Assembly (NCBI GenBank): GCA_965233585.1
Contig: CBDDTI010000106.1
Coordinates: 1-29,521, forward strand
Length of the DNA stretch: 29,521 bases
Direction: 5' to 3'
Source: a bacterium
GTDB lineage: Bacteria; SAR324; NAC60-12
Positions 11,601 through 29,255 of this stretch are shown in pieces. Both the position numbers and the translations under genes were made by a program. Under the pieces are notes generated by a model. It did not search any database, was not told the origin of the DNA, and saw only the letters and a program-made list of their open reading frames with translations. The first letter of the stretch is position 1; the number at the start of each line of letters is the position of its first letter.

Positions 11601-12505
11601 CTGCCATCTTGGCACAGTTATGAATGGAGGGAAGAAAAATATAAATACAAAGTCTCATAATCTGTCAATGTGTCTGCCACACCATGCTCCTCTGCAATGA
11701 CCCTTAGCAACCTATTTCTCTATATTCTTTGGACAGTCAACAAAGCTTTCTGTGTGGTTAAAAAGGTATATGGCCAAAGATTTCATTTACTGTTCTGGCC
11801 TTGATCGAGGAATAATCCATGAATTATTCTCTCCCTTCCCTCCCTTTCCTCAATTCCTAACTGTTCAAAGATGGTAGGTAATTGACAGATATGAAGTCCA
11901 GAACAGGACATGGAATCTTCAGAGATCTAGCAAATGTTAGGACAGCTCTTTGTTGATCCCAAGATACTCTATGGGGGTAGAGGCATTGCTGCTAGTTGTT
12001 TCAAAGAGCTGTCACAACAGTTTAGACTGCTAGATTGCCAAACATTTCATGGTGAAGAATCTGGGGGAATCATGGGAAAAGGCCAACATAAAGACCACAA
12101 AATCAGGGGTAAGGATCTTCCCAACGGGGCTAGGTTAAAGTGCAAGTATTAATTTCACTAATTGGTCATGTTTTCAATGTGTCGGCCCGGACCACAGTGC
12201 CCTTCCCATCCTTGTCGATCATCTAAACGTTCTTGCCATCCCCAATGGCATTTTCTTCAACCATCTTGATATTCTTGGCCACCCCACATCCTCAATGGCA
12301 TCCTTATTGACCATCTCAATGTTCTTGGCCATGCCAGCATCTTCCATGGCATCCTTGTCGACCATCTCAATGTTCTTGGTCAAGGCAACATCCTCAAGGG
12401 CATCTTTGTTGACCATTTTAATGTTCTTGGCCACTCCAACCTTATTGCATTCATCAAGTTGGTTGTTTTGCCTGTCAAACAGCATCCATCTTGGCCATTG
12501 CGATC
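8602..12505. repeat. Right arm of giant inverted repeat, with internal palindrome ~9060-10760 centred on 9895-9942
   Basis: 8602 onward is the reverse complement of 5013 backward. 10770-12505 is the reverse complement of ~1107-2845 with few differences. Confidence 0.92.
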
Positions 12506-12720
12506 TGTGGAGTAATGTCCCTACATCACTCTCATTCGAGCTTGTTACGCTCTAAAATCACCTTAAAACGTTCTCAAAACACCTTAAAACAGGCTGAAAC
12601 CGTCTTTCAACCATCCGTTTACCGATAAAAACCATCTTGATGCGCTCTCAAAACACCTTGATGGCATCTACATTAAGGTTGTTTCAACCTGAAACCGGCT
12701 TGTAATCGTCTGCAACCGGC

Positions 12721-13006
12721 TTGTTTTCGTCTGCAATCGGCTTGCAACAGGCTCGATCGAGCCTGCAATCGGCTTGTTTTCGTCTGCAATCGGCTTGCAA
12801 CAGGCTCAATCGAGCCTGCAATCGGCTTGTTTTCGTCTGCAATCGGCTTGCAACAGGCTCAATCGAGCCTGCAATCGGCTTGTTTTCGTCTGCAATCGGC
12901 TTGCAACAGGCTCAATCGAGCCTGCAATCGGCTTGTTTTCATCTGCAATCGGCTTGCAACAGGCTCAATCGAGCCTGCAATCGGCTTGTTTTCGTCTGCA
13001 ATCGGC
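12721..13006. repeat. 53-bp tandem repeat, ~5.4 near-identical copies, each with an internal hairpin
   Basis: Unit TTGTTTTCGTCTGCAATCGGCTTGCAACAGGCTCAATCGAGCCTGCAATCGGC at 12721, 12774, 12827, 12880, 12933 and 12986 (partial). Confidence 0.95.
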
Positions 13007-13520
13007 CTGTTGCAACCCGATTGCAAGCCGTTTGCAACATCAATTTTTCCACTTTCAACGTCTTGAATCAGTTCGGGGGCGCGAAGAAAGGTTCTGAGAA
13101 CGGCAATGTTTGAATTTCCGTTCTTTAAAACAAACACAAATTAAAGCGCAACTCGTTTTGCATCAACAAATCTTAACTCGCGCCAAAATTATTGTCTTAA
13201 ACAATAATTTCCGCTCGATTATTTTATCAAAAATACATACATGTTCAACTTTTCAACAGTTATTGTTTATCAGTGTTTACGAAAAGATTCTCAATCCAAC
13301 TAAATGTCGCAATTATTTATTAACAGAAGAAATCACGTTTGTTTTTATTTTGGTTTTATGGATGATTTTTCTGCCGCTGTGTCTAATTTTTAAGTAGCAG
13401 ACTATCATTCTTAATTCCAAAATAAAAGAGCGCGCTTAATTTTAAATTTATTATTTTTTATGTCATAAACTATTTCAGTACTACATCACACGTCTTTCTA
13501 TAAACATTTGCTGCAAATTC

Positions 13521-13865
13521 ATGGTCAACAACAACAATCTCACGTATCAACATATAAAGAATCCCCACGTTTTGTTGCGAAATATCTCAATTCTTCTCAA
13601 CAGGATAAACAAAATCTTAAAGTTGTTGGATCAACGAGTATTTGTGTATCGTAAAAACGTTAAGGACCGCACGTGTTTCTTTTATATTCCAACATATGAT
13701 TCCGAAACACGCGCGCAAATCATTTTTGCCATTCAAAAAGAATTACGAGTGTACCATTATTATAAAAAAGTAACCATTAAGTTTTTGTCTAAAACGTTTT
13801 GTTTGAAAAACAACAACATTTTTAATTATGTGGAGCAACGACTCGCCTCCCGCCAATCGCCGTAA
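13521..13865 (+). CDS. Hypothetical basic protein, 114 aa (Polinton accessory)
   Basis: ATG-initiated ORF in AT-rich context with TATAAA at ~13499. Confidence 0.5.
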   Translation: MVNNNNLTYQHIKNPHVLLRNISILLNRINKILKLLDQRVFVYRKNVKDRTCFFYIPTYDSETRAQIIFAIQKELRVYHYYKKVTIKFLSKTFCLKNNNIFNYVEQRLASRQSP

Positions 13866-14082
13866 TTGTGTCCGAAGAAACAGAGATGGAGAAGATCCTT
13901 TTAAATATATTTATTTTGTAAAAGACACTATTTCCCCTTGGCTTTTAGTTTTTCTTTGGTCTTTTTTAATGCTGCTCGGTCTATACGCTTTATTTGAACA
14001 TGAATACAAATTATGGAGGAATATAAATGTTAACAACAAAACTGTAGATTTTTCTATCCCTCAAAATACAAATGTCTTGTAA
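13828..14082 (+). CDS. Small single-pass membrane protein, 84 aa
   Basis: Hydrophobic stretch ISPWLLVFLWSFLMLLGLYALF and an NKT sequon; overlaps the upstream ORF by 38 nt. Confidence 0.5.
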   Translation: MWSNDSPPANRRNCVRRNRDGEDPFKYIYFVKDTISPWLLVFLWSFLMLLGLYALFEHEYKLWRNINVNNKTVDFSIPQNTNVL

Positions 14083-14400
14083 GCGCGGTGTGTTTTACTT
14101 TCTCAGCGTGAGTTTTCTCGTTTCTTTGCGTAAATTTCGCTCAACCCTCCCTCTGCGAAGTGTTCTTCATAAAGAATCTTTCAAAGCATTTTTTTTTATT
14201 GTATGAAAAAGTTCTTTTTATTTAATTTCGACAAAAAACTTCTAACTTTATTTATAATAAATGTACATATGTTCGCGTGTTTGACCGCCCGCTTTTATTA
14301 TAAAAAATAAATAATTTCAAGTTCTTGATTTAAAAACTTCATTTCATTTTCAATTCTTAAACATTTCAAACTTTAAAAGTATATTTGCAATTCTGCCATA

Positions 14401-15465
14401 ATGAACTTCAACATCATCATCGTCTTCGTCATTTGTGCCTTTTATTTGGCACAAAAAATTTCGTGCGAGGAAGACATCACTTTATTGAAAAATCTCCTCG
14501 CCAAAATTGTCGCATCCACTAATTCTTCTTCTGATACGACCATCGTCCCAACAACCGGCTTTGCTTCAACCACCACAACTGCTTCTTCCACTTCAAGTAC
14601 CACGACCGTTCCTTCTACTAGCACTACCACCGTCCCGCCCACTACCGTTGCTACCACTTTGACGAGCTCTACTCTCTCAACTACGATTGTAACTTCACCC
14701 GCTACCACTTCGGCTGTGTTGGAAACAAGCACGGTTCTGGTACCTCCATTGCCACAACCACTTTTAATCCGCCAACGTTTTCCGCTTCGCCTAATGTATC
14801 AACAATACATAGTACTTTTTCCTTTGCGGGTTTTGACTCCACAACCTTTGACAGTAAGTATTGATTATTTTCTTTTAAGTTAACATTTTTTATACAAATG
14901 CCTTATTATTTTCAGATGTCTTCAAAATATTTGTTGGATCTGTGTTCGCCTTCATTTTTGTAACGTTTGCCATAATAATGTACAAATTAAGAAGACTGAG
15001 CCATCACCACCAAGAGCCGTCTAACGTCGAAGTATGATTATCGTATTTTATAAAATATTTTGTCTACTCTATTTTTTTTTTTTTAGCCTATTGAAATGAT
15101 TCAAATAGAGGCTGCTGCGGATCCATCAGCAAATGAAGAGGTTGTGGAAGAATCGAGTGTTGAAATTCTGCCGCTTGAGTCAACCGCATCGGCGTTGCCG
15201 TCCGATGCAACTACTTTTTTGTCGGTTCCCGAAAAAGTAGATAAAGCAACCAACACGGAGTATACGGTAAGAAATTTATTATTATTTTTAAATCGCTTAT
15301 TATATATAAATTATTTTTTAGGTTTATCATAGACGACCGTACTTTTCGAGCATGATTCCTCCGTTATTCAACACACCTCGCACGGAACCTGCGACGGATT
15401 CTTCTTCAGTAGCCGTTGACCCTTCTCTCCTTTCTGCCAGGCTAAATTTGTCTACTCCCGTCTAA
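14401..15465 (+). CDS. Mucin-like type I membrane glycoprotein, 4 exons (14401-14853, 14916-15031, 15087-15266, 15322-15465), one frameshift near 14733, ~297 aa
   Basis: Signal peptide and S/T-rich ectodomain. GT-AG introns of 62, 55 and 55 nt. Exon 2 gives TM helix VFKIFVGSVFAFIFVTFAIIMY followed by KLRR. Ends in STPV; AATAAA at ~15498. Confidence 0.75.
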
Positions 15466-15571
15466 TACATTATAATCTAGTTTTTATTTTTATTTGAATA
15501 AAATAAATGCGCATTTCATTTTATTTCTCAAAAATACATTTATGCATATGTACATCTTTGGTCGTTTTGTT

Positions 15572-16786
15572 CTATTGTTGGATATGAGGCAGTTTTTTCT
15601 TGATGCCAAAACACAATTCCATAAAGGCTTTTGTTATTTCCTCCAGCCCTCTTAGCGGTACCTGAATCTTCATAATCTTGGTCGAATATTGTTGGTTGTT
15701 TTCGTTATACTGAAAAAATGTCTTTTTAGATAAGATTTTTCATGCTATCTGACGTACTCACGTGTTCCTTTTTCACATAAATCACCGGCCAGGCTGATAG
15801 CCCTCCGGCCTTTTGAATATGCCTCAAGCCGGTTATTCCGACGGTCACTTGCGGATTAAGGTATACTACCTTGTACATCGGCTTAATTGGGAGGCTGATG
15901 CTTTTCTCATCCACTTTTTTTGTCTTGATCAGCTCAATAAATTTTTTGAGCGTGGCCGGATTTATGTACATATACTAAAATAAAAATTAAAATTATTTTA
16001 ATTCATCAAATTAAGTTAATATAGACTTACATTGTCTGGACCAAAAAAGTAGGCTTCTCTTGTTGAATGTTCTTTTTGCCATTCAGCAAAATCGATATCC
16101 CTTGTCTCGCATATTTTTTCGGTGGTCCAATTTCGAAAATATTGCTTTTGCTCATCTTCGTCCATTAAAATTTGATACGACATCAATGACGCGCCTTCAT
16201 AGACCGCATGATTGTTAATTTCAGTATCCACCAATATTCCTTTTTTATTTGACCTTTTTCTTTTCTTTCCTAAAATGTCTTGAGTCTGCTCATTAAGGTC
16301 TTCGTCATCATCATCATCATCATCATCATCATCGTCATTGTCATCATTTTCTAAACTTTCATCGCTTAACTCCTCCGCATCGGTTGAAACATCATCATCA
16401 TCAGATTGAACAGTCAAAATTTCTGACTCTGATTCTTCTTCCGTTTCTTCATTTACAGAGTCCGATTCTGATGACGAAATGTTGTGGTTCCTTTTTTGTT
16501 TTTTTCCTTTAATTATAAAATATTACCATTAATTGTAACGCGTGTAAAAAACGACTTAAAAATTAGAATTACCTGATTTCAATTTATGTTTTTTATTTGT
16601 ATTCTTCTTGGATTTTCCATTACCAATCTTCTTTTTATCAGTCTTTTTATTTTTCTTTTCCGCCTCTGACGTATTTTCAGCCTTTTTTTTCTTCTCATCA
16701 TCAACGGCTTTATAATTAATCTCTTCCGATTTACCATTTTTATTGGCTGTGTTAGGCTTTTTCTTTTTTGCGGGTGATTTCTTCAT
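15572..16786 (-). CDS. 346-aa protein, 4 exons (16786-16573, 16506-16031, 15974-15762, 15709-15572): Lys-rich N-terminus, poly-Asp/Glu tract, globular C-terminus (possibly PC4-like)
   Basis: GT-AG introns of 66, 56 and 52 nt join three listed ORFs plus a last exon into one frame of 1041 nt. Confidence 0.8.
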
Positions 16787-17455
16787 CTTATTGCTTTAAA
16801 TGCGGGTGATTTATTCTGACAATAAATCTGTACTGACGTTTGTCATCAAATGTAGGTTCTTTTTAAACCTTCTTGAGTTTAAGGGAGTGTCAGTATGACA
16901 ATGTTCTAAGGGGCTCTTGATTCCACATGCGCGGGCAAGTAGCTGATAAGTTTCATCAATTTTGATTGGTTACACAGCATAAATGAGCTATGGTGTTGAA
17001 GGTTGTAAATTTTAACGATGCTGAACGCGTTTGAGGTCAATTCTTGTTAATGTTTTTGGCTCATCCTAAATTATAACGCGTCAAGTCGTTAACAGACAAT
17101 GGTCTAAGGAAATTATGGATAATTTGTGTTTTTGAACGTGTTGAATTGTGAATTAAACAACGGTGCAAGAAAATTATGGATAATGGGTGCACTGTGTGCT
17201 GTGTGTGTGTGTGTGTGTGTGTGCGTGTATTTTCCATCAATTTTTTCTCATTCAACTAGTCCGTATTTGTAACAAATTATATTTGTCAAAACTCAATCAA
17301 AACGCCATTAATTTTTCCGAGTACTTAACGTTTCTCATGCTCAAGATTTGTAATTTGCTGTGGATATCTTTAATTTTTTTGTGCTTAATTTGTCATTAAT
17401 TTTTTCTCATGCAATTGGCTCGTAAATGTGCCAAACTATTTCCCACCAAAAATTG

Positions 17456-17491
17456 TATAAAAACGCGGTCATATTTCCAAATTCATTCATT
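17456..17491 (+). promoter_or_regulatory. TATA box plus TCATT initiator-like core promoter
   Basis: TATAAAAA at 17456 and TCATTCATT 27 nt downstream, upstream of ATG 17552. Confidence 0.55.
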
Positions 17492-17551
17492 ATAAGTTTG
17501 AACATTCGTTGAAAGAAGATCTTCTGCCATTCGCTGTCAAAGGTAATTCAA

Positions 17552-18379
17552 ATGTCTAATTCACCAAATGACTCAAACAACCCTCGCCAAGTTTTTTTTG
17601 GCCCTGCAGGGTTAAGAATAAGATTTCACCTAAGAAACGTTGATGATTTAACATCACCGCCATCTCCACCGGTTGTGCCAATTGGACGAGGTCGAAGAGA
17701 TTTGAGGTCAAATGATGGCCCAAGTTCTTCTCTCGCCGCTCGTGGTGTTGGTCGGGGCCAGAGAACATCTTCCTCGTTTAATCAACGGGGTCGAGTATCT
17801 GAACCGATAGTTGTAAACCCCGAAGGATTTGGAATTATGGTTCAGATCAATAACAATCCAGCCGATGATTTAACATCGACCAATAACTCCGCCGATGATT
17901 TAACATCGCCATCAAACAACGCTGTCGATGATTCAACATCGAACCCCATGTCTCAAAGAATTTTTGCTGAGCGCAACACCTCGAGTACTTCGGTCGCTGG
18001 TCGTGGCGTTGGTCGGGGACAAAATATTTCTCGCCCCTTCAATCAAACGACTTCAGCCTCGATTGGACGAGAGGTCAGACGCGGTGTTGGTAGGGCTGGA
18101 AGATATTCTTCTCCTTATCAACGTCCAACTCGATCAGCAGAAGAAGAAATAGAAGAGGAAAATTATTTCCCCGCACCCACAAATTTTGAAAGATCGAATG
18201 ACGGTCGTTTAGCCTCTTTCATTCTCGATTTAATTGATGTAGAAGGAGGCTCACCTTATGATTTGTTTAATCGTTATGCTGAGTACGTATTGCGTCAACG
18301 CATTCAAACGCTTGAGCGTGAACGCGAACGCTTACGTGCTCAATATCAAAGATTGTTGCGTCATTTTAGACAAGAATGA
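17552..18379 (+). CDS. 275-aa disordered RG-rich protein with C-terminal coiled coil
   Basis: Long ATG ORF with RGVGR x3, DDLTS/DDSTS x4 and a heptad-like tail LRQRIQTLERERERLRAQYQRL. Confidence 0.8.
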   Translation: MSNSPNDSNNPRQVFFGPAGLRIRFHLRNVDDLTSPPSPPVVPIGRGRRDLRSNDGPSSSLAARGVGRGQRTSSSFNQRGRVSEPIVVNPEGFGIMVQINNNPADDLTSTNNSADDLTSPSNNAVDDSTSNPMSQRIFAERNTSSTSVAGRGVGRGQNISRPFNQTTSASIGREVRRGVGRAGRYSSPYQRPTRSAEEEIEEENYFPAPTNFERSNDGRLASFILDLIDVEGGSPYDLFNRYAEYVLRQRIQTLERERERLRAQYQRLLRHFRQE

Positions 18380-18493
18380 TTTGTATTAAGTAATTTGTTT
18401 ATAAATGTCTGAGCTATATAGTTTTAATGTGTTTGTATATATTATTTCCAAATTTTATGCGTCAATAAATTTTGTTTCAGAATTTTAACAGAA

Positions 18494-19255
18494 ATGCCAA
18501 AATCCTACGTCTGCCGCGAATGCCAAAAATCGTTTGCTAGAAAATCTTCCCGAGACAAACATGAATCGTTTCGTCATCGTGAAACATCGACAAAATTCCG
18601 AAATCGGACTCCATTAAATCAATCGCTTCAGTGTCCGTTTTGTAAGAATGAATTAAGTTCCTTCAAATCAAGAAATGATTTGGTCTCTCACATCGATTCC
18701 TCTCATTTAGAAGACTTAAATTATTCTCTTTTTAAATCTGCTTTGAATGGTAAAATTAAAATTTTTCGGAAACATATATTTTCTACAGAAACGCTTCACG
18801 CCTTTGTTGTTAATAGAGCAAATAGACAAGAAATTGTTGATGTCATTCGTCATGAATTGAGTAAAACCTTTACAGTAAAAGTTGCTTTAATTTTATCAGC
18901 GGCGTATCAGATTCCTGATTTGAATTCAGCTACAAAAGACAAAGACACTGAGACGGAAGCTGCTGTTGATAATACTTCAACACAGCCTCAAACGGTTGTT
19001 AGCAACATTGATGATTCAACTGAAAAAAGTCTTGATCAGTCGTCACATCAATTAATGCCTAGCGATCGAGATGTCTTTGCTTTAAGAACCGGCTATATTC
19101 AATTCACGTCTTTTGATTCTTCTCGCTCGTTAAAAGGTAAAGTTCAAAAATTATTAAACAATTTAATAACTCGAGAAGAGGATTTGTTGATGAGAGGTTC
19201 CGGATGGAGATTCGAATCTCTGTCTTTTAGCGACATCCAAATCACTAATATTTGA
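18494..19255 (+). CDS. C2H2 zinc fingers plus putative terminal-protein domain (homolog of the pPolB N-terminal region)
   Basis: CRECQKSF..H..H and CPFC..H..H fingers; C-terminal GSGWRFESL motif typical of the N-terminal region of Polinton pPolB. Confidence 0.75.
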   Translation: MPKSYVCRECQKSFARKSSRDKHESFRHRETSTKFRNRTPLNQSLQCPFCKNELSSFKSRNDLVSHIDSSHLEDLNYSLFKSALNGKIKIFRKHIFSTETLHAFVVNRANRQEIVDVIRHELSKTFTVKVALILSAAYQIPDLNSATKDKDTETEAAVDNTSTQPQTVVSNIDDSTEKSLDQSSHQLMPSDRDVFALRTGYIQFTSFDSSRSLKGKVQKLLNNLITREEDLLMRGSGWRFESLSFSDIQITNI

Positions 19256-19305
19256 TTTTAAGGACTTATTTTGTTGTATATGAAAAATTCAAGTAAGCTT
19301 TGGAA

Positions 19306-22300
19306 ATGGATTTTATAGAAATTCCGCGAGATTTAAAAAGATCTAACTGCTTGGAATGGAATACTCGATATGATAAATTTAACTTTCTTTATCTGTACAT
19401 TAGACATCTTTTTCCAGAAACTGCTTCCATCACAGATTTTCGTCAAATGCCAATAAAATATCTTAAAAAATTCAACATAAAAGGTTTTACGTTTCCTCTT
19501 CAATTTTGTGACATAAAAAAATTTTTGTGTAGAAATCGTCATTTACCAATTTCAATTTCCGTACTTTATGAGAGTGAAGGTCACGTTTCAAAGTTAGGGT
19601 TTATTACTAACAAAAACAATGATATAAGAGAAAATACTCTCCATTTGTTAATGATAAAACACGATCCTAAAATCTCTTCCGATAAAACTTTAAGTAATTC
19701 CCGTCCCAAAAAATCGAGTTTTCCTTCCAAGTTTAAAAAAATCAAAGATTTAAATCAACAGCATCATTTCTTTAAAATTACAAAACTCCAAGGTTTTTTG
19801 AATAATCGGGCCGGACTGTTGTCGATTAATAAAGCGGGTCAACAGAAGTACATCCACTGTGAAAAATGTCTGCTGCGTTTCCGATCAAAATCCAAGAAAG
19901 AAAAGCATGAGCGGATTTGCTACGATAAGCAACGCACCATCTATCCCGGCAAAAATGCCGCTATAAGTTTTTCTAACCACAAACATAAATTTAAAGCACC
20001 TGTTGTGGGATTTTGTGATTTTGAAAGTGTACTTCAAAGAAACAAGGAACGATCTAAATGTCGACTTTGTTCTAAATTGGAATGCTTGTGTGCTTTTCCT
20101 ACAAGTGACGATATAAATGTGCATAGACCGGTAGGCTACAGCCTGATTTTTGTGGACTCCGAGAATGAAGTATTCTTTCAAGAAGAATATTTAGGAGAGG
20201 ATGCGGCCAAACGTTTTTTGGATCGGATACCTCTCTATGAAAAAGTTGTTGAAGAAAGAAAACAAAAATTCAGAGATGTTCTCAAAACTCAAGCCACCCA
20301 GGAGGAATGGCAAATGTTTCGAAAAGCAACCGTTTGTCATATATGCGGTCTCCGATTTGCTACCCATCCTAAAAAGTATAGAAAAGTTTTGGATCACGAT
20401 CATGTCACAGGAAAAATAATGGGTGCGGCTCATTCGCTGTGTAATTTGACAAGATCCGGACCCTATCACACGCCAATTTTTTTCCACAACGCTCAAGGGT
20501 AAAAAATTTTTTATTAACTTTATTTTATCAATCAATTTTTACAAATTAAACGTTTCAGATACGATTTGCATTTAATCATAGAAGAGTTAAACATTCGCCG
20601 ATTCAAGAAAATGCCGGAAGTCTTGGCTAGAAACAGTGAAAAATTTCGCACTCTTACATTGGGCAAATTCAAAATTCAAGATTCATTAGAGCACATATCT
20701 GCCAGCTTAGACGCTCTTGTCCAAGATTTGAATCAAACTTCAAACTTTTCTTTCCCTATTTTACAACAGATGGAAAGATTTCAAAAAATTCCTATCCGTC
20801 AAAAATCAAAAGCTTTTAAACTTTTAAAAAGAAAAGGCATTTTTTGTTACGAGCATTTTCAATCATTACAAGAAATGAAAAAAAGTCGAAACCTCCCAAC
20901 CAAAGACGCTTTTTATTCCGAATTGAATGAAGAACACATCTCGGAAACGGATTATTCTCATGCGCAAGAAGTCTTCAAACTGTTCAAGTGCAAGAATGTA
21001 GCGGATTACATGATGCTTTATTGTTCTTTGGATGTCATCCTGCTATGTGAGGCATTTCTTCAATACAGGAAAATGGTTATGGAACATTTTCAATTGGATC
21101 CAATCTATTACTTAGGTAAATTTCCTTTTCTGTTGCTTGACATATAAAGTTTGAATATAAAATTTATTTCGTATAATTTTAGGAATTCCTGGTTTAAGTT
21201 TTGATGTTATGCTTATGTTCTATCAAAACTCTGAACGAGCTACAACAACAAATGATAACCTCGCGGGTGAATCTTCCAAGCCTCTAGGATCTCTGGATAT
21301 CTATTCCGATCCCGAAATGGAGCAGTTTTTTACAAAGGGTATCAGAGGCGGACAAAGCTTTATCTCTCAGCGTTATGCAAAAGGAAACAGCAATCCGAGA
21401 AAAAGCGGCGATCATTTACTTTACATTGACGGTAATTTTATACTGCATCGTTTGATTAATTTATTTATTTAAAATCGGTGACTTTTTAGCAAACAACTTG
21501 TACGGGAGCATGGAAACTTTAAAATTGCCAGTTTCTGATTTCGAGTGGGTTGCAAAAAAAGATCTTGAAAAATGGACTGCCAAAGATATTATCAAGATTC
21601 CTTCTCAAGACGAGACCGGGTACGCATTCGAAGTTGATTTGCATTATCCTTCTCATCTTCACCCGGTAAATCTGATCTTTTTAACACGTTTTTGCATTTT
21701 GATAAACGGTAAAATATTTTCAGACACATGATCAATTTCCGCTGGCTCCGTATACAGACACGGTTTCTTACAAACATCTGTCTCCTTATAATCGCCGTTT
21801 ACTAAAACATCTTAACCCTCGAGATTATAAGAACAAAAGATACCGAAGCAAGAAACTGTTGAGCACTTTTTATGATCGAAAAAAGTACGTGGTGCATCTG
21901 GAAAACCTACAATACTACTTGAAAAAGGGCATGAAGCTGTTGAGGATAAGAAGAGCCGTGAAGTTCCGACAAAAAGCTTTTCTAAAAGAGTTTATCGAAA
22001 AGGTGACATTGCTACGATCGAACGCCCGTAATGATTTTGAACTTCGGCTTTTTAAGCTTTTTGCCAACTCTACTTTTGGAAAATTTATCGGTAAGTAAAT
22101 ACCCAGATTTAAGATCTTTTTTATATTTTTATATTTGCACAAGCGCGTGGTGGTACTGCCAATATTTCGTGCAAAATGTGTTGGCAGTACACACCACACG
22201 CTCATCCACATCTTCAATGTCGTCGTCGTCGGGAGGCGCGTGGACCTCGGCCTCCACGGTGATGACCTCCCCGTCGAAATCAGACATTCGGTTTGCCGCC

Positions 22301-23961
22301 GCTCGAATTTTGGCCAGACGAACGATCTCCGTTGCCCGAATTCTGGCGGCAATAGACCTGTCGTCGGCGGGGAGTCTGATGGGAATGGGGGCCTCGATGG
22401 GAACGTCGGTGGGGATCTCGATGGGGGGAACTCGATCGATGCGCCTCGGTGGGGAACTCGGTGGGGGCCTCGATGGGCACCTCGATGGGGACGGGGACCT
22501 CAATTGGCACCTCGGTGGGGACGTTGGTGGGAATCTCGGTGGTGGGGAACTCGATGAGAAACTCGGTGGGGGCCTCGATGAGCATCTCGATGGGGGACTC
22601 GGTGGGAGCTTCGATGAGCGCCTCGACGGGGACGGGGACCTCAGTGGACACTTCGGTGGGGAGGTCGACAAGAATGCCGGTGGGGACGTCGGGCTCAATA
22701 AAGTTTTCATTTTGAAAGCCTCGGACAGCGCGACCGCCGCCGCCACCGTTGGCGGCGAGCACAGCAACGCCAACGGAGAGTGCAACGGCAGCGGCGCTAG
22801 CGGTGGCGGCGGCGGCGGCAGCGGACGGCGGAGCATCAAAAATGTCGGCCACGGCCGACCGGATCCGCCGGATCAGGCCCGGTCTCCGGTTCTTCTTCTT
22901 CTCCTCCTCCTTCTTCTCCACCGCCAAAAGCGGCTCTCCATCCTCCTCCCTTAACCTCCTGTACCCTCTCCTCATCTCCATCATCATCATTTTTCCTTGC
23001 TCTTCTTCTTCCTCTTCTTCCTGGTCTAAAGTTTGTTTTGAAAATTGCCACATGGTTTTGGGAAGTTTTTAAAAAATGAATCTCCAAACTCCTACACACT
23101 TTATAATGAATTTTTATAAAAATGTTGTATTCTTTATAAAATATTAATTTTATTTTATATTTTTCAGAAAATGTTCGAAATTACATCGAAGTGGTCCTTT
23201 GTGGAGATGAAAAAAGTCTGAGGAAAGCCAGTCTTGGTCAACACATCAACAATTTTCAAATCATTAATGAGAATTTGGTGGCTGTCAACAAGAAGCCGGC
23301 AATGATAGAGCTTAAGAAGCCTTTAGCCGTCGGATTTTCCATTTTGGAGTTGTCCAAGTTGTTTATGTACAGATCATACTATGACACCATTCAAAAACAT
23401 TTCGGCAAAGACAATGTATCTTTGTGTTTTTCGGACACGGATTCTTTTCTTTTAAAAGTTAAATGCAACAATTTGGAAAGGGAAATGAAGAGATTGAAAC
23501 ACATGTTTGATTTTTCAAAGTACCCTAAACAACATCCACTTTTTGACGACAGTAAAGCCAATCAACTTTTTTATTTTAAAGATGAATTAAAAGGTAGAGC
23601 GGCTATTACTGATTTTATAGGCTTACGTCCAAAATGTTATTCTATGAAAATAGCCGATTTTTTGGACAAAAACAAAACTGATGAGAAAAAAGTATGCAAA
23701 GGTTTAAAAAAATCTAGTATAAAAAAGCAATTAACTTATGCAGATTACAAAAAGTGCTTAAAGCAAACTGTTGTAATTTACAAATCTTTTAAAAATTTAA
23801 GATCAAAGAATCACAAAATCCGAACGTGTTTTCAAAGAAAAATTGCGTTGTCGGCAATGGATTCCAAAAGATATGTTTTAAATTGCGGATGTCACACTTT
23901 ATCGCTAGGAAATTGTCTTATTGTTAACAACAAAATGTCTAAATGTCAAATTTGTAAATAA
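19306..23961 (+). CDS. polB: Protein-primed DNA polymerase B, 6 exons (19306-20498, 20559-21115, 21183-21431, 21490-21665, 21724-22090, 23168-23961), 1111 aa
   Basis: Splicing restores HNAQG|YD (ExoII), YLG|IPGLSFD, YID|ANNLYG (motif A), HP|THDQFPLAP and KLFANSTFGKFI|ENVR (motif B). ExoI DFES, ExoIII YCSLD, DTDS and RPKCYS are intact. EndoVII-like insert CHIC..DHDH..H..CN. Exon total 3336 nt, in frame. Confidence 0.93.
22129..23053 (-). CDS. Nested antisense gene in pPolB intron 5: acidic protein with a hydrophobic segment and P(T/I)E(V/A/F) repeats; frameshift near 22440
   Basis: ORF 23053-22280 and the C-terminal part of ORF 22839-22129 continue the same PTE/PIE repeat across a frameshift. 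Minus-strand TATAAAG (~23105-23099) and TCATT (~23079-23075) lie upstream. Confidence 0.7.
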
Positions 23962-24027
23962 AAAATAATTAAATCATTACTTTTATTTAAAAGAAAATTT
24001 TGTAATTTCTTTTTTAAAATTAATAAA

Positions 24028-24723
24028 ATGAACGGTTTTGATTTGAGGTTTAATATTCCGTCCAACATGTTGGTTGTCGGTCCAACATCAAGCGGAAAAA
24101 CAACGTGGCTAAAACATTTAGTGCTTCGTCGGCACGAATATTTTGCAACTCCGCCTGAAACAATGTTGTTGTTTTACAAGGAACCGCAAAAAGCATATCA
24201 GTACATGGAAGACGACATGAATGAGGGCAGAGGTTCTGACACACAATTTCCGTCTTTTCGTAAATTCAAAAATATTCCAAATTCAATTGAAGAGTTGAAA
24301 GATATTTTAGAATTATATCCGAGAAAAATGCCCAAATTGATTGTTTTTGACGATTATTTAGACGATGTTGGGCAAATATTAAAACATTTTTTTACGGTTT
24401 TGACCCATCATTACAATTGTTTCACCGTTTTTCTTTGTCAAAATTTATTTGACAAAAAAGGCGATTTACGGACATTAAGCATAAATACGCAATACATGAT
24501 CCTTTTTAACAATCCGCGGGACAGAAGCGCCGTTGCACATTTGGCAAAACAAATTTTTCCCGGTCGTGTTGGAATCTTAAATAAAGCATATAGAGAAGCA
24601 GTTAACGGTCGAAGTCACGGATATCTTCTTCTAGATTTCCATCAACAGCAAGACGATAAAGTCAGAATTCGAAGTAACATCTTTCCTTATGAAGGATTAA
24701 TGAAAGCCTACGTTACTGTTTAA
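24028..24723 (+). CDS. A32-like (FtsK-HerA superfamily) genome packaging ATPase
   Basis: Walker A GPTSSGKT, Walker B LIVFDD, HHYN..FLCQN and GYLLLD motifs; 231 aa. Confidence 0.92.
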   Translation: MNGFDLRFNIPSNMLVVGPTSSGKTTWLKHLVLRRHEYFATPPETMLLFYKEPQKAYQYMEDDMNEGRGSDTQFPSFRKFKNIPNSIEELKDILELYPRKMPKLIVFDDYLDDVGQILKHFFTVLTHHYNCFTVFLCQNLFDKKGDLRTLSINTQYMILFNNPRDRSAVAHLAKQIFPGRVGILNKAYREAVNGRSHGYLLLDFHQQQDDKVRIRSNIFPYEGLMKAYVTV

Positions 24724-24770
24724 AAAATTTCATATCTATTTAAGAAAAATTAAAAATAATTACTGTTAAA

Positions 24771-25145
24771 ATGTCAAAAAAATTAGAAAAAGCTAGTTCG
24801 CTTTTTAATGCAATAAAAAAATTAAAACATCAAGATTGTGCTAATTTTTTAAATTATTTGGACGATCGCGGCGTTGAATTGCTTTGTCGTATTTTACATT
24901 ACGTTTTGAACGGCGAATTGCCCTTACATGGCGAAGTGCGAACACGACTTCAGAAAAAAATAAGAGCTCATTTAGGGGAGTTCAGACGTCTTGCCACGCC
25001 GCCTCGTCGCTCTTCCGACATTTTGAAAAAAAGAACAATACTACAAAGGGGCGGAATTTTAGGAACTTTATCGGCAATTGCCAGCATTATCGTCCCTATT
25101 TTAGCTCAAATTATTGCAAAAAAGAGCTTGCAACGTCGTCGTTAA
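24771..25145 (+). CDS. Basic virion protein with an adenain-type GG cleavage site and C-terminal amphipathic helix (adintovirus 'cupiennin'-like)
   Basis: LQRGG|ILGTLSAIASIIVPILAQII; located directly after the ATPase. Confidence 0.75.
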   Translation: MSKKLEKASSLFNAIKKLKHQDCANFLNYLDDRGVELLCRILHYVLNGELPLHGEVRTRLQKKIRAHLGEFRRLATPPRRSSDILKKRTILQRGGILGTLSAIASIIVPILAQIIAKKSLQRRR

Positions 25146-25148
25146 AGG

Positions 25149-25994
25149 ATGAGTTCAGGTGTGAAAAGAAAAACAAATGATGAAATATACTCCATGTTTT
25201 TAGTCCCCAAAAGGCTATATCATTCTTTAATAAAAAATATAGAAGATAATGAAACAAAAAAAGAACTTATTTCTATGAATGAAAAACCAAATACGTCCAA
25301 TTACATCGAAAATGCCATTAATTTTAAAAATTTACAAGACAGGCAAAAAATGAATCAAAGCGGTGATAAATTGTACCGTTTTGGTTCTGATAATATATCA
25401 AATGTTATGCCGCCAGTACAAGTCGATAGCAGTACGGGTCGTACGTATCAATCTATTTCAAGATCAACAACCGCTCAAACTCCCCAACAAAAAGAAAATA
25501 CCGCTCAGTTTTTGCCCACTACTCCCATTATGGAAAGGGAACCCGATCCAGACTTGTTTTATACCGCTTCAAGACCAAAAAGCAAAGACGATACTTCAAC
25601 TCCTGACGTGCCAGAATGGTGAAATTTGCCTGTTATAAAGGCATTGACACAAAAAAATTCAGACGGCAAAATATTTTGTCCTTTCACCGCATGCGGGAAG
25701 CAGTATGTTGACGATGCGCAATTCGGCAAACACCTTGTAAGAGATCATATGAAAGAATTGTCTATATTTGACACAGAAAAAATTGGTAAAGATATAGCCT
25801 CGGTCTCTTCACAAGCATCAAAATCCCCTTCAGCTTCAATGTCATCCCTCAAAACAGGATCAGGAGGTGCGAAAAAGAAAACTTTTACTATTTCTCCCGT
25901 ACAAACTAGATCTAAATCAAAAAAACTTTCAACAACTGATGCAGATGCTGTTAAAAAAAAATTACTTTTTCCGGGAAAATACCCAAAATTATAA
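25149..25994 (+). pseudogene. Polinton protein with a C2H2 finger, interrupted by one in-frame TGA (25620-25622)
   Basis: ORFs 25149-25622 and 25626-25994 share a frame. N-terminal MFLVP motif; finger CPFTAC..H..H. Confidence 0.6.
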
Positions 25995-26132
25995 TGAAAG
26001 TAAAATATATATCATCGTTTATTTTCAAGTTTTTTTATAAAATGAGTTACAATTTCATCATTTTTTATTTTGGGTTTTTTTACAAATATTTTAACAAATT
26101 GTTGAGGAGACATTAAATTGTTGCCCACGGAT

Positions 26133-26468
26133 TGTTACGGTCATCTATCTATCTATATATTATCATACATCTTTGTACATAGCTATCCACCGCGCTCGTC
26201 ATCATACAGAAATATATTCACTCGCTTGTTAGCTCACATGGAGTCATGAACAGGATTTTCTCGAACTTGATTTCTGGACTTGATTTCGAGGAAGGATGCC
26301 TGGTCAAGTCCTGGCAAGTCCATCAGCTTCAAGCGCAGTCCCTGGGACCATTCTAAGTGAATCCAGGTACACCGGGAAGGCAACAGTCGCCTTCCAATTC
26401 GTCAAGGCCAGAAGAGGGGGAGTTTCCCGTGAGAAACGGCGCCCCGGCCTTTCCACCCTCGATGGAGC
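26133..26468 (+). mobile_element. 5' LTR (26133-26238), PBS and leader of a truncated Gypsy element
   Basis: TGTTACGGTC...CTCACA is followed directly by TGGAGTCATGAACAGGAT (PBS-like, resembling a tRNA-Leu complement). Confidence 0.75.
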
Positions 26469-29255
26469 TCAGACAATTGCTGTCAGCTCTAGCTCAAGTG
26501 TGGAATAATTTTTCTCCGCTGGTGACAGAGAACGGGAGCCACACTGAATAACCTTTGTCTTTTCCCCTGAGTGTTGCATGAGGACGAATCCAAGGCCGTG
26601 CAACCGGGAGGCATCAGTGATCAGCCTTGTGTTCCATGTTGGGTCAAAGTGGTTGAGGGCCAGGGCTTCGAGAAGATTTGTTTTTAGTTGATCGAAAGCT
26701 GTCTGATGATCTTCTAACCAAAGGTAGGCAGTGTCCTTTCGAAGCAGAGTTTGGAGGATGCTGGTGTGTTTTGCCAGCCCAGGGTGGTATGCGGATAGCT
26801 GGTTGACCATGCCAAGAAAGCTACGGAGCTCAGATACTGATCTCGGGGCCGGGAAGTCCCTTATTCCTTGCAAATACTCAGGGTTAGGCTGCACACCGTT
26901 TTGACTGACAATTTGTCCTGCGAACTCAACTGATTCTCCAATCTCCAGTTTTTTCCTGGACAGGGTGAAGTTGTGCGATCGGCACCTTGCCAATAGTTGA
27001 TCTATACGGTGTCGAAGAGTGTCTATGTCCGGGGCTTGTATGAGGATGTCATCGACCAACTTTCTGATTCCGGGAAGGCCTTCGATGACCTTGTCTGATC
27101 GGCGACAGAACTCATCACTAGAACAAGATAGGCCCATGGGGGCTCTCAGAAAGCGGAAGCGTCCTGAGGGGAGGAGGAAAGTTGTTAGCTTTGAGCTCTC
27201 TTCATCGAGAGGCACCTGATGATATCCCTGGGTTGCATCTAACTTGGCAAAAACTCTAGAATCCGGATCTATGCCTGACAAGATCTCTTGGGTTGATGGG
27301 AAGGTGTGGATGGGCCTCTGGACGTACTTGTTTAGTTTCGTGTAGTCGATCACGAGACGAATATCCCCATTCTTTTTAGCAACGAAGAAGCCTGGAGCAC
27401 ACCACTCTGTTGGTTCCTCCTGTGGTGTGATTACCTTGCCATCAATGAGCTTCTTAATGATCTTCTCTGCCTTTTCTCTCCAGTGGAGTGGAATCTGGTG
27501 AGCAGTACTGATGCGAAAGGGTTTCTTTTCACCTGGGGTGAGATGGACTTTCATAGCTACACACCCTGTGTTCAAGGATGTCTGTGGTAAGTCGTCCGTG
27601 AGAACGGTTGGGTTGTCCTTGATCAGAGACTCTTTCATGCTTTTATATTTATTTTCTGAGAGAAGATAGACAGGCAGAGGGAATTGCTTTGATATAACCC
27701 CGAGTTTGCTAAGATCATCTCGTCCCACGATGATTTCATTCTTGATGGCATCTGTGATAACGGCCTTCGTTTCTGATACATGGTTGGATGATTTGAGGCG
27801 AATGCGAACCGTTCCTGCGGTGGGCACAGGATCCCCGCTGACATTGTAGTATTTGACAAATGAAGGAGATGTCGGCTTTATATTCTGTCTGGTGGCAAGA
27901 TCGGCCACGATCAGAGTGGCAGCGCTTCCTGTGTCTGGAAACGTGGAAAAGTTGAAAGATCCGTTTGCATGAGAGATGTTAAGCGTTAAACGATTTACCC
28001 ATGAATTGTCCGGATCTTCAGGAGTTTCTGTCACTGACATGACAGGCTTGCTCGAGCTGGGTTTTCCCTTCAGCGCAGATGAGCAGACCTTTGCAAGGTG
28101 GCCTTTGATGCCACAATGGTTGCAAGGCGTTCTGTTTTGCCATATAGCACAGTCCTGACGGGCGTGGTTACCACCGCAACCTTTGCATCGTTTCGGTTTC
28201 GATGGTTGCTTCTCTTTGGCGTTGGTTTGTTGTTTTCCTTCGGTTGGTTGGCTTGGTTGGCGGCCTCCCCCCTTATTGAGTGCCGCGACTGGAGCGGCCT
28301 TGCGGAGAGCAGCTTCTGCTTTTTGTTGGCGATCGTATTGGTCGATTGCCTCTTTGACGGCCGTGGCGTCCTTGCGTTTGAGATCAAAGATCTTTTCACG
28401 CAAGTGGGTGTCCTCGCAAGCGTCGATGAAGCGAAAGACTGTGAGGTCTTCTTTGGAAACGGCCTCGAGGTCGGCCATGTCGCCCAGTCTGGCGAGGCGA
28501 AGATAGAAGTCGCTGGCTGTCTCTCCCTGATCTCGGCGTACCTGGAAGAAATCCACACGTCTGTTGAAGACTGGGTACAGAGACTTGAACTCGGCCTCCA
28601 GCATATCGATACAGCCGGCAGGTCCGAAGATAGATGTTCCTGGGCATAGCTGACGCTCCAAGATCTCCTGCAGTGACTGGTCCAACGCCTGTAGGAAATA
28701 TCCCTGTTGGGTGGCTACCGGTTGCTGCTGTAAGTTACTGGCGTCGTAAAATCTCCTGAATGCTGCGACCCATAGCCTCATTTCACCAGGTGTGTTGGCC
28801 TTCATGAGCTGGGTCGGGAACAGAAGCTTACATGTGCTGATTTTTGGAGGATTGGGCTGGACGGATGATTGTCCGGATGTGGATGCGGCCCTTGCAGACT
28901 CTTGTGAGTGTTTTGACACATACTCGTTTAATTTTGTCAAGGCCTTGTCCTGTCTCTCCTCATGCAGTTTAAGAGATGTCTCGGCTGCCTCGTTTGCTGA
29001 TTCGTTGCCGGCCTCGGTCTCCAGATCGCTCCAGCGGTCGTGAAGCTCGACACAGAAGTCGAATGCGTCGGTGAGACGTTTCCGAGCGTCGGAGCAGGAT
29101 GCTGGTGTGTCGAAGACGAATTTCCTTTCAACCAGCTTATCGATGGCAGTGCACGCACGGGTGACGGCGCTCTTGGCCGATGGTATGCGTGCCCAGATGG
29201 CAGCCGAATCGTTCCAATTAACTTGATCCCTCCTGTCAGCCTTGGTTGTTGGAAG
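26469..29255 (-). CDS. Mag-like Ty3/Gypsy gag-pol in a single frame, truncated in RNase H, no integrase
   Basis: Zinc knuckles CKGCGGNHARQDC and CNHCGIKGHLAKVC, protease DTGS, RT (KLDATQGYHQ, PMGL, LVDD) and RNase H TDAS..ELE. The frame is open 105 codons upstream of 28940. Confidence 0.92.
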   Translation of the reverse strand, partial: LPTTKADRRDQVNWNDSAAIWARIPSAKSAVTRACTAIDKLVERKFVFDTPASCSDARKRLTDAFDFCVELHDRWSDLETEAGNESANEAAETSLKLHEERQDKALTKLNEYVSKHSQESARAASTSGQSSVQPNPPKISTCKLLFPTQLMKANTPGEMRLWVAAFRRFYDASNLQQQPVATQQGYFLQALDQSLQEILERQLCPGTSIFGPAGCIDMLEAEFKSLYPVFNRRVDFFQVRRDQGETASDFYLRLARLGDMADLEAVSKEDLTVFRFIDACEDTHLREKIFDLKRKDATAVKEAIDQYDRQQKAEAALRKAAPVAALNKGGGRQPSQPTEGKQQTNAKEKQPSKPKRCKGCGGNHARQDCAIWQNRTPCNHCGIKGHLAKVCSSALKGKPSSSKPVMSVTETPEDPDNSWVNRLTLNISHANGSFNFSTFPDTGSAATLIVADLATRQNIKPTSPSFVKYYNVSGDPVPTAGTVRIRLKSSNHVSETKAVITDAIKNEIIVGRDDLSKLGVISKQFPLPVYLLSENKYKSMKESLIKDNPTVLTDDLPQTSLNTGCVAMKVHLTPGEKKPFRISTAHQIPLHWREKAEKIIKKLIDGKVITPQEEPTEWCAPGFFVAKKNGDIRLVIDYTKLNKYVQRPIHTFPSTQEILSGIDPDSRVFAKLDATQGYHQVPLDEESSKLTTFLLPSGRFRFLRAPMGLSCSSDEFCRRSDKVIEGLPGIRKLVDDILIQAPDIDTLRHRIDQLLARCRSHNFTLSRKKLEIGESVEFAGQIVSQNGVQPNPEYLQGIRDFPAPRSVSELRSFLGMVNQLSAYHPGLAKHTSILQTLLRKDTAYLWLEDHQTAFDQLKTNLLEALALNHFDPTWNTRLITDASRLHGLGFVLMQHSGEKTKVIQCGSRSLSPAEKNYSTLELELTAIV

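Follow-up and report, generated by a model that had tools for sequence, protein, structure and literature searches.

The DNA polymerase gene of Polinton/Maverick-type elements is normally met as one long open reading frame (ORF), and a copy that is broken into several pieces raises the question as to whether it is the wreckage of a dead gene or an intact gene whose coding sequence is interrupted by introns. Such a copy lies at positions 19306–23961 of contig CBDDTI010000106.1 (GenBank assembly GCA_965233585.1), a stretch of 29,521 nucleotides that is the complete contig (C106) and is referred to here as the window. The assembly is filed as a prokaryote genome, and an initial annotation of the sequence had proposed that the gene encodes a protein-primed family B DNA polymerase (pPolB) split by five spliceosomal introns, in an intron-rich Polinton lineage that ORF-based surveys would misread as degraded. 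From comparisons with other copies in the assembly and with homologs elsewhere, we consider it highly probable that this is a Polinton polymerase gene residing in eukaryotic nuclear DNA, that its five spliceosomal introns are specific to one clade and were followed by clean losses of some of them, and that the fifth intron houses an antisense gene.

Organization of the polymerase gene

The five GT-AG introns can be read directly in the letters of the window at the positions originally proposed for them; all begin with GTAA, and all end in a T-rich stretch followed by AG. The six exons, which lie on the forward strand, are open in the frames required and follow the standard code, none of TAA, TAG and TGA occurring in frame; joining them by their coordinates yields a predicted product of 1111 amino acids without a stop. 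Read without splicing, the same gene appears as six ORF pieces, the largest of which has 401 codons.

Exon 1 (19306–20498) contains the start codon, ATG, and encodes Exo I and a zinc finger as well as an HNH/Endonuclease VII-like insert (approximately 20296–20451) and half of Exo II, namely its first half; it can be aligned to two outside homologs, P0002 and P0030; its residues 331–382 match PF02945 with an E value of 1.2e-5 and 25.5 bits (cut-off 23.6). Intron 1 (20499–20558; 60 nt, phase 2, GTAAAA..TTTCAG) contains two in-frame stops and is followed by exon 2 (20559–21115), which encodes the second half of Exo II together with Exo III, by intron 2 (21116–21182; 67 nt, phase 1, GTAAAT..TTTTAG), and by exon 3 (21183–21431), which ends with the first residue of motif A. 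Intron 3 (21432–21489; 58 nt, phase 1, GTAATT..TTTTAG) separates this residue from exon 4 (21490–21665) and the remainder of the motif, and intron 4 (21666–21723; 58 nt, phase 0, GTAAAT..TTTCAG) leads to exon 5 (21724–22090), which ends shortly past motif B. Intron 5 (22091–23167; 1077 nt, phase 1, GTAAGT..TTTCAG) has a G+C content of 54%, as against approximately 36% around it. Exon 6 (23168–23961) encodes motif C (DTDS) and KxY, ends with the stop codon, and has 58 matches in the assembly.

Three of the junctions had been placed in or next to conserved motifs, and this is where they are found: intron 1 splits HNAQ-G from YD, intron 3 splits YID from ANNLYG, and intron 5 lies four residues past KLFANSTFGK, these being stretches that we take to be Exo II, motif A and motif B, respectively. 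Among 26 outside members of the family the patterns D..E, HN..YD, Y...D, D.N.LY, K...N...G and DTDS form invariant columns, all of which are present in the exons of the window and which we presume to correspond to Exo I, II and III and Pol A, B and C. With these motif residues in place and five of the 26 homologs matching PF03175 (DNA_pol_B_2), the gene is identified as the pPolB of a Polinton/Maverick-type element, as the initial annotation had it. PF02945, the family matched by the insert in exon 1, is found in 19 of the 26.

Uninterrupted homologs and fragmented relatives

A homolog search with exon 6 as the query yields full-length outside relatives that are single ORFs of 1074–1412 amino acids and lack all five introns. 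When P0002 (1295 amino acids) and P0030 (1246 amino acids) are compared with the window by tblastn, consecutive residues flank every interruption, and intron 1, whose length keeps the frame, appears as a gap of exactly 20 codons. These 20 codons are absent from the homologs, and the spliced protein is collinear with its uninterrupted counterparts across all of the junctions. Among 35 outside full-length homologs the alignment is ungapped within 8 residues of junctions 1 to 5 in 35, 35, 30, 30 and 35 cases, respectively, and the gaps seen near the junctions are small indels of 1–8 residues.

The closest public relatives, those that are 58–97% identical to exon 6, exist only as pieces of 147–488 amino acids (75 of 75), which bears out the suspicion that genes of this kind are misread when ORFs are taken at face value. 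Forty-eight of them do not extend across junction 5, the implied start of 29 falling no more than about 25 residues from where exon 6 begins; a further 25 cross junction 5, with 16 starting at the exon 5 boundary, and the remaining two (P0131 and P0143) cross both junction 4 and junction 5, their starts lying a little past junction 3. This pattern fits introns at identical sites in other samples, together with what would be further clean absences. The relatives that cross a junction are 60–74% identical and comprise P0115, P0124–P0146, P0148, P0149, P0151 and P0153.

Related copies within the assembly

Matches to the polymerase found in the assembly by tblastn were grouped into 64 places, and approximately 36 of the copies bear introns. 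These fall into three subfamilies, A, B and C, and a check of their intron positions, as had been suggested, finds the same residues and the same phases in all three. Subfamily A comprises 11 full-length copies including that in the window, at 92–95% nucleotide identity, and the spliced coding sequence is intact in all ten of the others. Subfamily B also has 11 full-length copies, at about 82% nucleotide identity, of which nine are intact, the two broken ones having a frame shift (contig C224) and one internal stop (contig C96). The 14 copies of subfamily C, which has divisions C1, C2 and C3, are more distant, at about 55% protein identity, and a spliced ORF of 1103 amino acids is complete in both C2 copies and in nine of the ten C1 copies, the tenth being cut by a contig end.

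The introns mapped in the 21 other copies of subfamilies A and B have GT and AG at their ends in 105 of 105 cases. Their lengths drift among copies by non-multiples of 3, with differences of 1–4 nt, and the spliced frame stays open. Intron 1 is 58–61 nt long in A and 64–88 nt in C, and intron 5 varies far more widely, from 1077–1351 nt in A and 1583–2322 nt in B to 55–74 nt in C.

Exons and introns also differ in how they diverge. Within subfamily A, divergence at codon positions 1, 2 and 3 is.0082,.0065 and.051, respectively, and that of the introns is.003–.10; between A and B the corresponding values are.105,.067 and.296, with.28–.50 for the introns. Indels follow suit, in that 64 of the 65 indel runs in exons are multiples of 3 and 139 of the 161 runs in introns 1–4 are not. 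By these measures the spliced frame is shown to be under selection, with introns that appear to evolve in a neutral-like manner. The interpretation of the five interruptions as spliceosomal introns is supported by every comparative test that was run, and it is from these comparisons that splicing itself is inferred.

Phylogeny and the gain and loss of introns

Two of the introns are missing from particular branches of subfamily C. Intron 2 is precisely absent from all ten C1 copies and intron 4 from both C3 copies, in each case with no residue gained or lost, and both C2 copies retain all five introns. Outside the three subfamilies, copies in the same assembly at 27–37% identity carry no insertion at any of the five sites that the alignment covers.

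A FastTree phylogeny of 79 sequences and 839 columns places A, B and C in a single clade (support.99) that is sister to the intronless P0002 (1.0), with C2 outside the grouping of C1 and C3 (.86). The intronless copies of the assembly are spread over three other clades, where they are mixed with outside homologs. The simplest reading is that five introns were gained on one branch and that two precise losses followed: the introns would have been acquired on the branch leading to the A/B/C clade after its split from intronless relatives, and intron 2 would later have been cleanly lost in C1 and intron 4 in C3.

An antisense gene in intron 5

The length of intron 5 in subfamilies A and B is accompanied by coding potential on the opposite strand. 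In the window an ORF nested in the intron in antisense orientation (22129–23053, reverse strand) encodes a protein that is rich in repeats and whose C-terminal part is conserved; this ORF is broken here by a frame change in tandem repeats, and in eight of the 11 subfamily A copies the longest antisense ORF of the intron is 293–380 amino acids long. Divergence of its C-terminal part at codon positions 1, 2 and 3 is.048,.026 and.142, which is the pattern of a coding sequence. The ORF occurs nowhere but inside intron 5, and its predicted protein has no Pfam relative and no usable match in the Atlas. In subfamily B, where the intron is 1.6–2.3 kb, there are two antisense ORFs, one of which has nothing in common with the A protein beyond a C-terminal motif of 20 residues. 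It would appear that in subfamilies A and B intron 5 has been turned into the home of an antisense protein-coding gene.

The source of the DNA

The assembly amounts to 12.0 Mb in 747 contigs, for which marker genes over the whole assembly indicate 92% completeness and 2% contamination, and its G+C content is 36–44% throughout. Long ORFs cover 79–87% of five large contigs with a summed length of 2.9 Mb, and approximately 7.4 Mb of the assembly is in contigs with less than 50% long-ORF cover; the small contigs of low density carry tandem histone arrays, reverse-transcriptase elements and Polinton-like elements. Because of what these small contigs hold, and because the polymerase gene is found in none of the 60 bacterial relatives of the bin that were searched, the window is eukaryotic DNA that was binned together with a bacterium; the source is most probably the nuclear DNA of a marine eukaryote. 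A single distant polymerase locus, at 38% identity, is present among metagenome contigs, and no related polymerase locus was found in the viral contigs searched.

By coding density, the eukaryote-like share of the assembly comes to some 7–9 Mb, as against about 3 Mb of densely coding contigs. The histone arrays have tandem units of approximately 6.6 kb, seen on contigs C7 and C488, with ORFs for H3 and other proteins of the core histone fold and at least three units on C7; their tandem arrangement, the sole clue as to what kind of host this is, hints at an animal. The only COX1 gene in the assembly is that of the bacterium, and actin is present as fragments only.

Alternative explanations

The alternative that survives best, and which we nonetheless regard as unlikely, is that the five introns are introners, that is, copies of intron-generating transposons that landed in a provirus. 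Such insertions are reported from Maverick-Polinton-like proviruses of dinoflagellates in the portions of the report available to us (PMC12166617), and in C3 there is a sixth, transposon-like interruption. The introns of the window, however, match only subfamily A copies of the polymerase (66 blast hits, none of them elsewhere in the assembly), so they do not belong to a dispersed family within the roughly 9 Mb of host DNA, and the five resemble one another only in short A/T runs and are without inverted ends. In favour of introners it can be said that these 9 Mb are the only host DNA that was compared, and that old introners decay beyond recognition.

The interruption in C3 is 223 nt long and lies in exon 1 (approximately C98:7383–7605 and C212:69450–69672). 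Its parts are an element of 212 nt, whose inverted ends are 44 nt long, and a near-duplicate of the flank, and it can be removed as GTATTG..CTAAAG with both the frame and the alignment length kept, after which 403 codons run to the first stop, in intron 1. No other full copy of the 212-nt element is present in the assembly, and the interruption may be a new intron made by a transposon.

A second and weaker alternative, which we think very unlikely, is that the segments are removed from the DNA rather than from the transcript, like the internal eliminated sequences of ciliates, and that the sequenced DNA is the germline form. Short, A+T-rich and precisely bounded segments would suit this explanation, but the eliminated sequences of ciliates are bounded by TA..TA repeats and the ends here are GTAA..(T)nAG, which, together with the standard code and the lack of in-frame stops in the exons, speaks against elimination of the ciliate type. 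The assembly moreover holds tandem histone arrays and Ty3/gypsy-type elements, and contigs of four sequencing runs include no segment-free form, a weak argument, as contigs drop rare variants. A scan of positions 12000–26500 against Rfam returned no family at threshold, self-splicing or other, and one sub-threshold match to a small Cajal body-specific RNA.

Hardly credible at all is the notion that these are dead polymerase pseudogenes, littered with insertions and stops and yielding no functional product: the six ORF pieces, the two truly broken copies of subfamily B and the truncation of the window's element at 26132 could be cited for it, but the same five segments recur at the same residues and phases in some 36 copies whose protein sequences diverge by as much as 45% and whose joined frame is open throughout, the exons are under strong purifying selection with in-frame indels while the segments change like third codon positions and have out-of-frame ones, and GT and AG at every one of 105 pairs of ends are not expected from random decay.

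The interpretation that we prefer, a pPolB gene with five spliceosomal introns gained within one clade, has observations weighing against it as well. No single exon matches a Pfam polymerase model (E up to 0.01), only the five family members mentioned above match PF03175 (best 5.5e-23), and a profile of the 26 homologs compared with solved structures finds no polymerase at E up to 1, its matches being zinc fingers and the restriction enzyme Hpy99I only; because neither the exons nor the profile give a polymerase match, the assignment draws on those five members and on the motif patterns. The GT and AG ends in subfamily C are not independent evidence, since the junction search in that subfamily required GT, AG and an open frame. 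DNA contigs of the four sequencing runs retain the introns over 18400–24800 and show no joint at any boundary, although as DNA they are silent on expression; among them are contigs at approximately 95–98% identity from a second study. The direction of change, gain followed by loss, is read into a tree whose root was set at the midpoint and whose alignment is anchored on the query, and in which the node uniting C1 and C3 has a support of only.86. Lastly, each of the remaining large genes in the element lies in one uninterrupted ORF, which makes the gain of introns specific to one gene and unexplained; the proposal of an intron-rich lineage is borne out for the polymerase gene only, and not for the ATPase, the integrase and the other large genes.

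Five introns in a gene under selection nonetheless remain the account that we favour, and its course can be outlined. The gene would be transcribed in the host nucleus, presumably by RNA polymerase II (Pol II), the host spliceosome would excise the five GT-AG introns, and the resulting mRNA would be translated into the 1111-residue protein-primed family B polymerase, in which Exo I and Exo II lie on either side of the HNH/Endonuclease VII-like insert.

The ORF upstream of the polymerase

Immediately upstream of exon 1 is an ORF of 254 amino acids with a C2H2 zinc finger (18491–19255, forward strand), which matches residues 3–192 of P0002 by blastp with an E value of 2e-6; its zinc-finger Pfam matches are weak. 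The six exons of the gene model proposed initially hold, and what that model missed is this separate ORF, which corresponds to the N-terminal zinc-finger region of fused homologs. A sixth intron joining it to exon 1 was considered and rejected, there being no GT..AG pair of the right length class in the window. In subfamilies A, B and C alike the upstream ORF has its own stop, followed by a spacer of 9–70 nt and then the conserved ATG of the polymerase, and the relative frames of the two vary between subfamilies. Since no suitable GT..AG pair is present, the spacer is shorter than 35 nt in C1, and the frames differ between subfamilies, we regard it as a separate ORF and not as an exon.

The element surrounding the gene

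In the window the element spans 12506–26132. Homology to other copies begins at 12506, where the flanks differ in five contigs, and the left end (12506–12956) is a terminal inverted repeat with 53-nt tandem repeats; this repeat, of approximately 445 bp, recurs in inverted orientation at the opposite end of the complete copies on contigs C30 and C77, which are about 22.9 kb long. The 53-nt units, at 12677–13113, are open in several frames and are the most repeated stretch of the window, with about 35 matches in the assembly. At the other side homology ends at 26132, and the element runs approximately 9 kb further in full copies. Beyond this point, toward the contig end, there is an unrelated open frame of 928 codons for a Ty3/gypsy-like reverse transcriptase and RNase H (26472–29255, reverse strand), which is probably an insertion into the element.

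Downstream of the polymerase is a packaging-ATPase-like gene in a single ORF (24029–24723, forward strand), with matches to ATPase_2, Pox_A32 and FtsK_SpoIIIE that are all below the curated cut-offs. Its neighbour at 24744–25994 (forward strand) is a series of three consecutive ORFs in the same frame separated by single stops, and four are arranged likewise in a sister copy (L011:3059–7099, forward strand); the third of the window's ORFs (25623–25994) has a zinc-finger-like CPFTAC...H...H before its first ATG, directly past the TGA. Read-through or re-initiation along this chain is a possibility. In the left arm an ORF at 14377–14883 (forward strand) has a hydrophobic N-terminus and a long Thr/Ser-rich, mucin-like tract, and matches no Pfam family.

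The part missing from the window contains further genes in the full sister copies. The integrase, which is not seen in the window's own copy, where homology ends at 26132, has in C30 a match to rve at 1.3e-8 and a chromo domain. Beside it are an ORF with a TBP domain (PF00352, 3e-19; L011:2421–3035, equivalent to C30:16420–17034) and one with a TFIIB zinc ribbon (L011:3059–3850, equivalent to C30:17058–17849), from which the element may bring its own basal transcription factors. An ORF of 581 amino acids in the full copies has as its nearest Atlas clusters ones labelled Preplasmiviricota, which we treat as a lead only, and a protease-like H..D..C pattern can be made out by eye in L011:660–1145, where there is no Pfam match. 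The target-site duplication of Polintons is 6 bp; no such duplication is seen by eye in either of the two full copies, whose ends are possibly misplaced by a few bases, and this counts against membership. Taken as a whole the element fits a Polinton/Maverick with unusual extras.

Relationship to described elements

The features shared with Polintons and Mavericks, the virus-like, self-synthesizing DNA transposons (polintoviruses) known from animals and protists, are a pPolB bearing the Exo and Pol motifs, terminal repeats in inverted orientation of approximately 450 bp, a length of about 22.9 kb, an integrase with rve and chromo domains, a candidate FtsK/A32-like ATPase, and the presence of many copies. 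Unlike known Polintons, this one has the N-terminal region of the polymerase as a separate ORF, TBP- and TFIIB-like genes in its full copies, and no target-site duplication in either copy where it was sought.

Introns are the more conspicuous departure. In the available text of the respective studies, the ORFs of intact vertebrate Mavericks are intronless, in stated agreement with Kapitonov and Jurka 2006 (PMC8097293), and the core genes of nematode Mavericks are intronless, with introns in cargo genes only (10.1101/2022.07.12.499685). Endogenous viruses of protists are likewise said to be free of introns in the passages at hand, where this is the reason given for using a prokaryotic gene caller (PMC10120064), and none of the virophage-like elements of Cafeteria is described there as having one (PMC8547959). 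Unlike all of these, the present clade has five conserved introns in its polymerase, one of them with a nested gene. Searches of the full-text literature brought up no account of a Polinton whose polymerase has conserved spliceosomal introns, although introns in invertebrate or fungal Polintons may have been mentioned early on. What is new and unusual is the occurrence of conserved introns in the polymerase of a kind of element normally treated as intron-free.

Two described systems come closer in particular respects. The 'pPolB2' of Polintons in terrestrial nematodes and oomycetes (Jeong et al., 10.1101/2023.08.22.554363) also has an HNH/Endonuclease VII-type nuclease inserted in the polymerase, a likeness by description only, from which neither a shared insertion nor a common polymerase group follows; the parts of that paper available to us, unlike what is seen here, report no introns in these genes. 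In some dinoflagellates introners are reported to be present in a quarter of the viral elements (10.1101/2025.03.18.643946), and the Maverick-Polinton-like proviruses of dinoflagellates (PMC12166617) resemble the present ones in having intron-type sequences within integrated elements, a resemblance heightened by the transposon-like sixth interruption of C3. The dinoflagellate inserts are described there as belonging to introner families spread over the whole genome and as having been picked up, for the most part, once integration had taken place, whereas the five introns discussed here are unique to the polymerase gene, occupy fixed codon sites across subfamilies, and would have been inherited with the element.

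Implications

For the databases, the consequences are that surveys relying on ORF callers would fragment this clade or score it as degraded, and that eukaryotic DNA makes up about three quarters of this 'bacterial' reference genome, a fact which the marker-gene contamination figure of 2% does not reveal. For the elements themselves, spliceosomal introns imply expression in the nucleus, which bears on the choice between a nuclear transposon and a satellite of cytoplasmic giant viruses. Within a single gene the family offers dated and replicated cases in which introns would have been gained or precisely lost, and one in which a transposon may have made an intron.

A broader picture, which we put forward tentatively and regard as plausible if somewhat short of probable, is that of a still-active Polinton clade with a host-style architecture: five gained introns, clean losses of single introns that would probably have occurred via reverse-transcribed spliced mRNA, a further intron derived from a transposon, an antisense slot, and TBP- and TFIIB-like factors of its own. 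If this is true, these elements would lead a fully nuclear life dependent on Pol II and the spliceosome, and would constitute a natural multi-copy system in which the gain and loss of introns can be watched.

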